The notes under the pieces are model-generated. The model saw only the letters and a list, made by a program, of their open reading frames with translations. It had not been told where the DNA came from and did not search any database. A stretch of DNA of 4,324 nucleotides from IMG/VR virus record IMGVR_UViG_2778261506_000003; one strand, given 5' to 3'. This document shows, in pieces, positions 3,253 to 4,324 of this stretch. The DNA comes from a virus (taxonomy: Duplodnaviria > Heunggongvirae > Uroviricota > Caudoviricetes). The position numbers and the translations under genes were made by a program. Position 1 is the first letter of the stretch. Each line of letters begins with the position of its first letter.

Positions 3253-4073
3253 TTAGCCACTTAACATTCCCCCATCACGTCGCATATTTAACAGATTGCC
3301 CTGCACCCGCTGATCAACCATCCCCATAAGTGCTTTTATTGCCTGAGGGCCAATCTCTCCATTCTGGCCGTCATTTTGAATAGTGATTTGGTATACAGGG
3401 GCATAGGTAATATCTCCGCCTCCATTACCACTTTTACTATTAATAGCTCTGACACCAAGAGAACCATCGGAAGTTCGTGTTAATGGCATAATGGCTTCCG
3501 GACCAGCCTCACCAAAAACACCAGCCCCTCTTGCAAAAGCAAAAAATTGCGGGGAATCATAAATACCGTTCGAATACGTGTTCAATGACGGAGACTCATA
3601 AACACCGCCCTTTGCATTCGGAATAAATTTACTAATAGCACTCCCGATAGTTCCTAAAATCCCCCCAGAAGAACTGTTACTAATGCTGTCGAAAATCCCA
3701 GTAATTGAAGCCTTTAATGCTATTCGACTAAGATCCGAAATCACGGAAGTAGCGAAAGAACGAAAATTTGCCTTGCCTGTCGTGACAAAATCACCCAGCG
3801 CATCGGTCATTCCATCAAACATCTGAGTCGTGGTTGATTTTATCTGCTCACTGATATCCTTAGTGTCATCCAGCCAGTTATTGAATCCCTGGGAGGCACC
3901 ACTAACCCAGTCTCCTGCCTGAATATCGAGCTGCTCGTTTTTCTGTCTGACAATTTCTTTTTCTCGTTCCAGAGCATCATTCAGAGCCTGCATTTTCTCC
4001 TGAAAAACATGATTTGACATCCCACGGGATTTATCTGCATAGTCACGTTCAAGTTGCAGACGCTGATTGTTAT
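3253..4073 (-). pseudogene. H: Tail tape-measure protein gene (H-like), C-terminal ~270 codons only; the 5' part is separated by an IS5-family insertion
   Basis: Open frame ending at stop 3253-3255, 34 nt upstream of the M start. Low-complexity, Gly/Ser/Ala-rich C-terminal region typical of siphovirus tape-measure proteins (...NAKGGVYESPSLNTYSNGIYDSPQFFAFARGAGVFGEAGPEAIMPLTRT...), with an upstream coiled-coil-like segment (QEKMQALNDALEREKEIVRQKNEQL). The frame continues 5' into IS-derived sequence at 4074, so the track's 328-aa ORF is chimeric. Confidence 0.7.
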
Positions 4074-4089
4074 GGAAGGTGCGAATAAG
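4074..4089. repeat. IS5-type terminal inverted repeat (IRR)
   Basis: 16-bp GGAAGGTGCGAATAAG at the junction with tape-measure sequence. The flanking tetranucleotide 4070-4073 is TTAT. Confidence 0.7.
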
Positions 4090-4220
4090 CAGGTCATTTC
4101 TTCCCAAGCTGACTCGTTGATTAAAATTTCGCGGATCTGGGCCGATTTTTTTCCCGCAAACACATCGAATCAGCCTATTTAGGCTATTTTTTCCACCATT
4201 TCTGGCGTTATTTCCGGTTT

Positions 4221-4324
4221 TTACTGAGATCTCTCCCACTGACGTATCATTTGGTCCACCCGAAACAGGTTGGCCAGGGTGAATAACATCGCCAGTTGGT
4301 TATCGTTTTTCAGCAGCCCCTTGT
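4221..4324 (-). CDS. IS5-family transposase (InsH-like), C-terminal 33 codons plus stop; 5' end outside the window
   Basis: Minus-strand frame open from the window edge to the TAA at 4221-4223. It translates to [33 protein letters not shown], which matches the recalled InsH C-terminus (...[33 protein letters not shown]) apart from two substitutions. Confidence 0.85.

Follow-up and report, generated by a model that had tools for sequence, protein, structure and literature searches.

The window, which is the whole stretch of 4,324 nucleotides analyzed here, is the entire 4324-bp contig NLVP01000113.1 of the draft assembly GCA_002511785.1, presented in reverse orientation. All genes of the window are located on the minus strand and make up the distal tail module of a lambda-like Escherichia coli prophage. 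In this prophage, the tape-measure gene abuts one end of the insertion sequence (IS) ISKpn26 (Table 1). Positions 1-4073 share 99.8% identity with prophages in many complete E. coli genomes, whose annotation lists the same genes together with an intact tape-measure gene. Over the 2.5 kb adjacent to the junction (1500-4073), the window and the intact prophage of strain 63-2 do not differ, and the intactness of the genes downstream of the tape measure can be read directly from the window.

Table 1. Features of the window and reference sequences of the intact tape-measure gene (IS, insertion sequence)
Feature	Position	Strand	Remarks
Tail tip protein J, N-terminal 289 codons, cut by contig end	1..869	-	Pfam FNIII-A_GpJ, E 1.1e-42; gpJ annotated in relatives
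Tail assembly protein I homolog, intact	930..1478	-	Pfam Lambda_tail_I; 1 residue differs from strain 63-2
Tail protein K homolog (JAB + NlpC/P60), intact	1475..2218	-	Pfam Prok-JAB, NLPC_P60; 1 residue differs from strain 63-2
Minor tail protein L homolog, intact	2224..2922	-	Pfam Phage_tail_L, E 7e-98; 0 differences vs. strain 63-2
Minor tail protein M homolog, intact	2922..3260	-	Pfam Phage_min_tail, E 1.2e-31; 0 differences vs. strain 63-2
Tape-measure 3' end, 272 C-terminal codons + stop	3253..4073	-	Pfam Tape_meas_lam_C
Chimeric open frame, IS end to tape-measure C-terminus	3253..4239	-	328 aa from GTG 4239
Chimeric frame, shorter version, public gene call	3253..4107	-	284 aa from TTG 4107
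TTAT, 4 bp flanking the IS end, candidate copy of a target-site duplication	4070..4073	.	Off-consensus for ISKpn26 (YTAR)
ISKpn26 (IS5 family), first 251 bp, cut by contig end	4074..4324	+	251/251 identical to annotated E. coli copies
ISKpn26 16-bp terminal inverted repeat (GGAAGGTGCGAATAAG), transposase-C-terminal end	4074..4089	+	15/16 match to opposite end
ISKpn26 DDE transposase, last 33 codons + stop	4221..4324	-	Same direction as tail genes
Intact gene: uninterrupted sequence spanning the junction region	4050-4100 equivalent		TTATATCCATG
Intact gene: start of the tape-measure N-terminus			MAEQTSRLAIIIDSTG…

The truncated tape-measure gene

The tape-measure codons run on the minus strand from 4071 to the TAA stop at 3253-3255 and encode 272 residues, and the split codon 805 contributes its last two bases at 4072-4073. 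The fragment translation matches the Pfam family Tape_meas_lam_C (PF09718) with an E-value of 3.9e-27 over fragment residues 53-127, and its position is that of a lambda-type tape measure, with Pfam matches to M, L, K, I, and J following downstream in that order. All 272 residues are identical to residues 806-1077 of the intact tape-measure protein of E. coli 63-2 (WP_065898768.1), which has 1077 residues and is encoded by a gene of 3234 bp. The breakpoint can be read directly and lies between codons 805 and 806 of 1077, at 4073|4074 of the window. Exactly after 4073 the likeness to the intact prophages ends: the intact genes read ...GATTGTTAT|ATCCATG or ...GATTGTTAT|ATTCACG across the breakpoint, and the window reads GGAAGGTGCG beyond 4073. 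As the window holds residues 806-1077 only, the N-terminal TMP_2/TMP_4 region of a full-length tape measure is not part of it, and the tape-measure gene in the window is a fragment and a non-functional member of its family. An earlier note on this DNA, made from the letters alone, had read the tape-measure frame 3253-4073 as running straight into an IS end with about 270 C-terminal codons left, which agrees with the loss of similarity at 4073 and with the exact count of 272. It had furthermore assumed a gene of about 850 codons as in lambda; the assignment as a tape-measure fragment holds, but the closest intact relative has 1077 codons.

In the 60-bp gap between the genes I and J, a G+C-rich inverted repeat (AAACCGCCCGGAGGCGGTTT) is located at 885-915, with a short T run 3' of it on the coding (minus) strand. 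A terminator scan did not list this repeat among its reported sites; it may act as a weak attenuator or as an mRNA-stabilizing hairpin.

The ISKpn26 end and its TTAT flank

The sequence from 4074 to 4324 matches copies annotated as “IS5-like element ISKpn26 family transposase” at 251 of 251 positions, and for 1504 E. coli records the best match to it reaches at least 99%. The name ISKpn26 (IS5 family, IS5 group) rests on RefSeq-annotated copies in genomes and plasmids of E. coli and Klebsiella, and the identity covers 251 of the 1196 bp of the element. A complete ISKpn26 copy of E. coli 1303 is 1196 bp long, begins with the same 251 bp and carries an inverted repeat with 15 of 16 matching positions at its other end; of these imperfect 16-bp terminal inverted repeats (GGAAGGTGCGAAYAAG), the window contains the one at the junction. 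The minus-strand translation of 4221-4322 equals the C-terminal 33 residues of the transposase (326 residues) that the complete copy encodes; this transposase matches DDE_Tnp_1 (E 4.4e-35), and its catalytic region lies outside the window. IS5 proper was considered as the identity of the element and rejected, as it is ~85% identical over the 251-bp stretch compared to 100% for ISKpn26. The earlier note had described an IS5-type element with a terminal repeat at 4074-4089 and had proposed a search of 4074-4324 against known IS, where the lack of any match would have spoken against an IS at this place. The assignment to the IS5 family stands and the stretch does match a known IS completely, but this is ISKpn26 and not IS5 proper.

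A comparison of ISKpn26 with one IS5-type copy revealed differences at IS positions 18-151 and identity over 152-267, and altogether ~945 bp of ISKpn26 are nearly identical to IS5. The contig ends at IS position 251 and includes 100 nt of the stretch in which the two elements do not differ, which would fit a de Bruijn break with k ~99, given other IS5-type copies in the genome. Because the contig breaks 100 nt into the shared run, the ISKpn26-specific end next to the junction can be assumed to be unique in the genome of GCA_002511785.1, and the junction then appears to be supported by reads rather than produced by a repeat. The contig leaves off after 251 bp of the IS, in the part that ISKpn26 and IS5 have in common, so that the far IS end is out of reach. 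The other contig end, inside gene J, is probably also a break at a repeat, there one that is common to other lambdoid prophages.

ISKpn26 generates 4-bp duplications, and insertions with a CTAG duplication have been described (PMC8023600). For the flank statistics, ISKpn26 ends were collected from prophage (viral) contigs, which gave 238 distinct junctions, 119 per end. The target YTAR was present at 211 of the 238 distinct junctions (~89%; 106/119 and 105/119 by end). The window junction with its TTAT does not conform to YTAR, and TTAT did not occur at any of the 238 distinct junctions from viral contigs. CTAT occurred eight times among them, twice with a verified duplication. Both flanks were readable in 44 ISKpn26 copies, 29 of which had a matching 4-bp duplication and 15 none. 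Among the nine resolved copies with off-consensus flanks, three had a true duplication (CAAG, and CTAT twice) and six had none, so that the duplication was missing in 6/9 off-consensus compared to 9/35 canonical cases (one-sided Fisher p = 0.03). In a smaller first sample all off-consensus flanks (4/4) were without duplication, which had seemed to speak for a deletion, but this was weakened when the larger sample gave the CTAT and CAAG duplications. Since CTAT and TTAT are both of the YTAT class, a simple insertion at an off-consensus site is plausible; at the same time, the TTAT flank makes a rearrangement somewhat more probable.

The ISKpn26 copy of E. coli 1303 (locus L213, 1480-2720) has the unequal flanks CAAA and CTAA and no duplication. 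It sits between a truncated DMT transporter pseudogene on one side and an IS4-family transposase with cobalamin-gene fragments on the other, and is probably located at the edge of a deletion or rearrangement.

Routes to the junction

The reading to which we lean, with a confidence slightly above the halfway mark, is a recent simple transposition of ISKpn26 into an off-consensus YTAT site. One ISKpn26 copy (1196 bp, with a DDE transposase) would have been joined to the tape-measure gene at codon 805/806, and the N-terminal 805 codons would follow just past the far IS end, behind a further copy of TTAT. In this case, the far IS end would read into TTAT and ATCCATGTTCAATCC, the sequence upstream from tape-measure codon 805, meaning that the element (…CTTGTTCGCACCTTCC) would be joined to TTATATCCATGTTCAATCC, and contig ends from the N-terminal side should, if present in the assembly, be recognizable by GGAAGGTGCGAACAAGTTCC. 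A short-read assembler would be unable to cross such an element, as ISKpn26 equals the resident IS5-type copies from IS position 152 onward. The event can be assumed to be young, since 1500-4073 is without differences from 63-2, M, L, K, and I have all kept their full length, and the ISKpn26-type end appears to be single-copy. The base rate among the resolved prophage-contig copies, 29 of 44 with a 4-bp duplication, speaks for a simple transposition. Against it stand the position of TTAT outside of YTAR and the missing duplication in six of the nine resolved off-consensus copies, as well as the fact that the far IS end and the N-terminal 805 codons are absent from the window and were not found in the collections searched.

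These searches covered the junction itself as well as its predicted counterpart. The exact junction was not found in 5426 complete E. coli genomes, in which the best matches of full coverage all consist of several pieces with the IS at other sites, and it was not found in collections of phages, plasmids, genome contigs, metagenome contigs or viral contigs. The window junction is strain-specific. The second junction predicted for a simple insertion (IS end, TTAT and upstream tape-measure sequence) was not found in viral contigs. The predicted N-terminal product of a simple insertion, 805 residues followed by KEGANKFLI (814 aa), was used as a further query and returned many truncated tape measures, none of which ended at residue 805 among the best 120 relatives; as this search used cluster representatives, under which short members can be absorbed into longer ones, the absence weighs little. 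A 115-aa query from the predicted N-terminal fragment gave 18 candidates only.

It is also quite possible, although in our estimation short of an even chance, that a deletion or rearrangement associated with the IS ends at the junction, either an adjacent deletion or a recombination with a different IS5-type copy; the earlier note had raised a deletion of this kind as its own alternative. In that case, the far IS end would be followed by unrelated DNA with no TTAT duplication, and the N-terminal 805 codons, perhaps together with upstream head genes, would be missing or located elsewhere. The off-consensus TTAT points in this direction, given the excess of missing duplications at off-consensus flanks (p = 0.03) and their absence in 15 of the 44 resolved copies overall, as does the copy of E. 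coli 1303 with its CAAA/CTAA flanks beside a truncated transporter gene. However, both resolved copies at sites of the YTAT class (CTAT) have true duplications, and a transposase-mediated adjacent deletion should also hit YTAR, so that an odd flank would not be specific for this route. The ~945 bp that are nearly identical to IS5 provide a substrate for recombination, and ISKpn26-associated prophage losses of 10-32 kb have been reported from Klebsiella (PMC6908951), which counts for a deletion here as well. That none of the best 120 relatives is an N-terminal fragment with its end at residue 805 can be read in the same way. On the other hand, the 2.5 kb identical to the intact prophage and the seemingly single-copy ISKpn26-type end suggest that there was little time for a secondary rearrangement.

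That the contig is chimeric and the true tape-measure gene uninterrupted is hardly credible. In favor of an assembly artefact, the contig, with 4324 bp, is a short one from a short-read draft assembly and has repeats at both ends, and the exact junction was not found in the 5426 complete E. coli genomes or the other collections. However, the junction lies 251 bp inside the contig, and the 151 ISKpn26-specific bp next to it offer no repeat that could mislead an assembler. The join coincides exactly with base 1 of the terminal repeat, as in a real transposition product, whereas a chimera would have no reason to fall there. Moreover, the identical contig is listed for two samples, and comparable IS junctions in the tape-measure gene occur in closed genomes.

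Consequences for the prophage and relation to known systems

In lambda, the tape-measure protein gpH is essential for tail assembly; it is needed to start the assembly and to set the tail length. With the gene split, this locus cannot yield a tape measure of full length, whichever route made the junction. Under a simple insertion and under a deletion alike, the prophage would be unable to assemble tails by itself, and infectious particles should arise only if a second lambdoid prophage of the host complements it or recombines with it. Plaque formation by the prophage of GCA_002511785.1 alone is very improbable. The statement of the earlier note that a tape measure split in this way should prevent the assembly of a normal tail, with a probably defective prophage as the consequence, is in line with this.

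The junction creates a chimeric open frame that leads from the IS end into the tape-measure C-terminus and to which we ascribe no function. Exact sequence look-ups found its 328-aa version not on record and its 284-aa version in one record, NLVP01000113.1, and two other versions of the ORF, of 255 and 246 aa, only on contigs without the window junction. An outward IS promoter driving the chimeric frame and the tail genes was considered and dropped, as the minus strand of 3900-4324, the IS end included, gave no promoter-like site. Since the transposase gene points in the same direction as the tail genes, read-through from the ISKpn26 transposase gene into the fragment and into M-L-K-I-J is conceivable from the gene arrangement.

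The same gene is disrupted in other strains, too. The closed E. coli genomes FDAARGOS_1249 and X14-3 carry the same prophage type with a tape-measure gene that is split by IS5-family elements and annotated as pseudogene fragments. Their insertions differ from that of the window, as they are located ~270 and 525 bp further into the gene, and the ISKpn26 junction of FDAARGOS_1249 and the IS5-type junction of X14-3 have CTAG flanks, unlike the TTAT of the window. In FDAARGOS_1249 (locus L001, 9253-16065) the tape-measure gene is in three pieces, with an IS5-family element and an ISKpn26 next to CTAG, and the ISKpn26 is itself split by an IS3-family element, a case of nested IS decay. Among draft contigs, an IS3-like end of the ISEc52 type was found 2 bp from the position of the window junction (L009, 1-120), and searches identified IS1 ends ~113 bp upstream of it (L010, 1-80; L013, 1-50). 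A further end ~22 bp downstream of it (L007, 1-40) is one that we take to be IS1. In another contig (L012, ~285-300) AATCAGTAACGCC replaces the intact AATCAGCAACGCC, a CAA-to-TAA nonsense codon that is an independent inactivation of the same tape-measure gene. In several other strains (L005, L006, L008) the gene is called as two ORFs of 792 and 246 aa with no IS between them; the nonsense codon was read in L012 and is assumed to be the cause in these three as well.

Within ~140 bp around the position of the junction, other strains hence show three IS1 junctions at two sites, an IS3-like end and a nonsense codon. If the distal third of the tape-measure gene were a preferred or selected site of inactivation in this prophage family, either a local DNA feature would attract unrelated transposases, or the host would be selected to disarm the tail while the rest of the prophage is kept. 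We consider this quite unlikely. The draft contigs were retrieved via one 246-residue ORF, which is called only if the gene is broken just upstream, and therefore the clustering of the disruptions is probably an ascertainment effect. The idea of an IS hot spot at the junction was dropped as unsupported, as the look-up returns only disruptions in a short interval. A gene of 3.2 kb is a large neutral target in a decaying prophage.

Altogether, the locus represents a known IS in a known gene and ordinary prophage decay, and thus an already known kind of feature; the disruption of prophage structural genes by IS, the tape-measure gene included, is well documented in closed E. coli genomes. For the prophage copy in GCA_002511785.1, annotation of the tape-measure gene as a pseudogene is appropriate. 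Of minor practical value are the off-consensus ISKpn26 flank of the YTAT type and the boundary of identity between ISKpn26 and IS5, which sets contig breaks in short-read assemblies.

The prophage of strain 63-2 combines a P22-type capsid gene and a YdaY gene with a lambda-type tail. The prophage family is a mosaic, as seen in the relatives L003 and L005: as in Rac-like prophages, genes for a P22-type major capsid, a Mu F-like head protein, YdaY and a DUF6651 protein accompany a lambda-type tail tip module (H-M-L-K-I-J, Lom, tail fiber). With the lambda gpH-type tape measure of 63-2, the window shares the C-terminal 272 residues, the Tape_meas_lam_C domain and the gene order H-M-L-K-I-J, but the 63-2 protein also has the N-terminal 805 residues with the TMP_2 and TMP_4 domains, which the window lacks. 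The tape measure of lambda has 853 residues and is shorter than this relative with its 1077 residues.

IS5 proper, represented by the insH copies of K-12 and the IS5-type copy of X14-3 (locus L002), resembles the element of the window in its family and in the terminal 12 bp, and is 96.5% identical to ISKpn26 over the whole element, but the mismatches to the window copy cluster at IS positions 18-151. The copy of X14-3 sits at CTAG in the same tape-measure gene, a target that ISKpn26 uses as well. The named ISKpn26 copies agree with the window copy in terminal repeat, transposase C-terminus and orientation; they usually have the YTAR flanks CTAG, CTAA, TTAG, and TTAA, whereas the window copy is flanked by TTAT.
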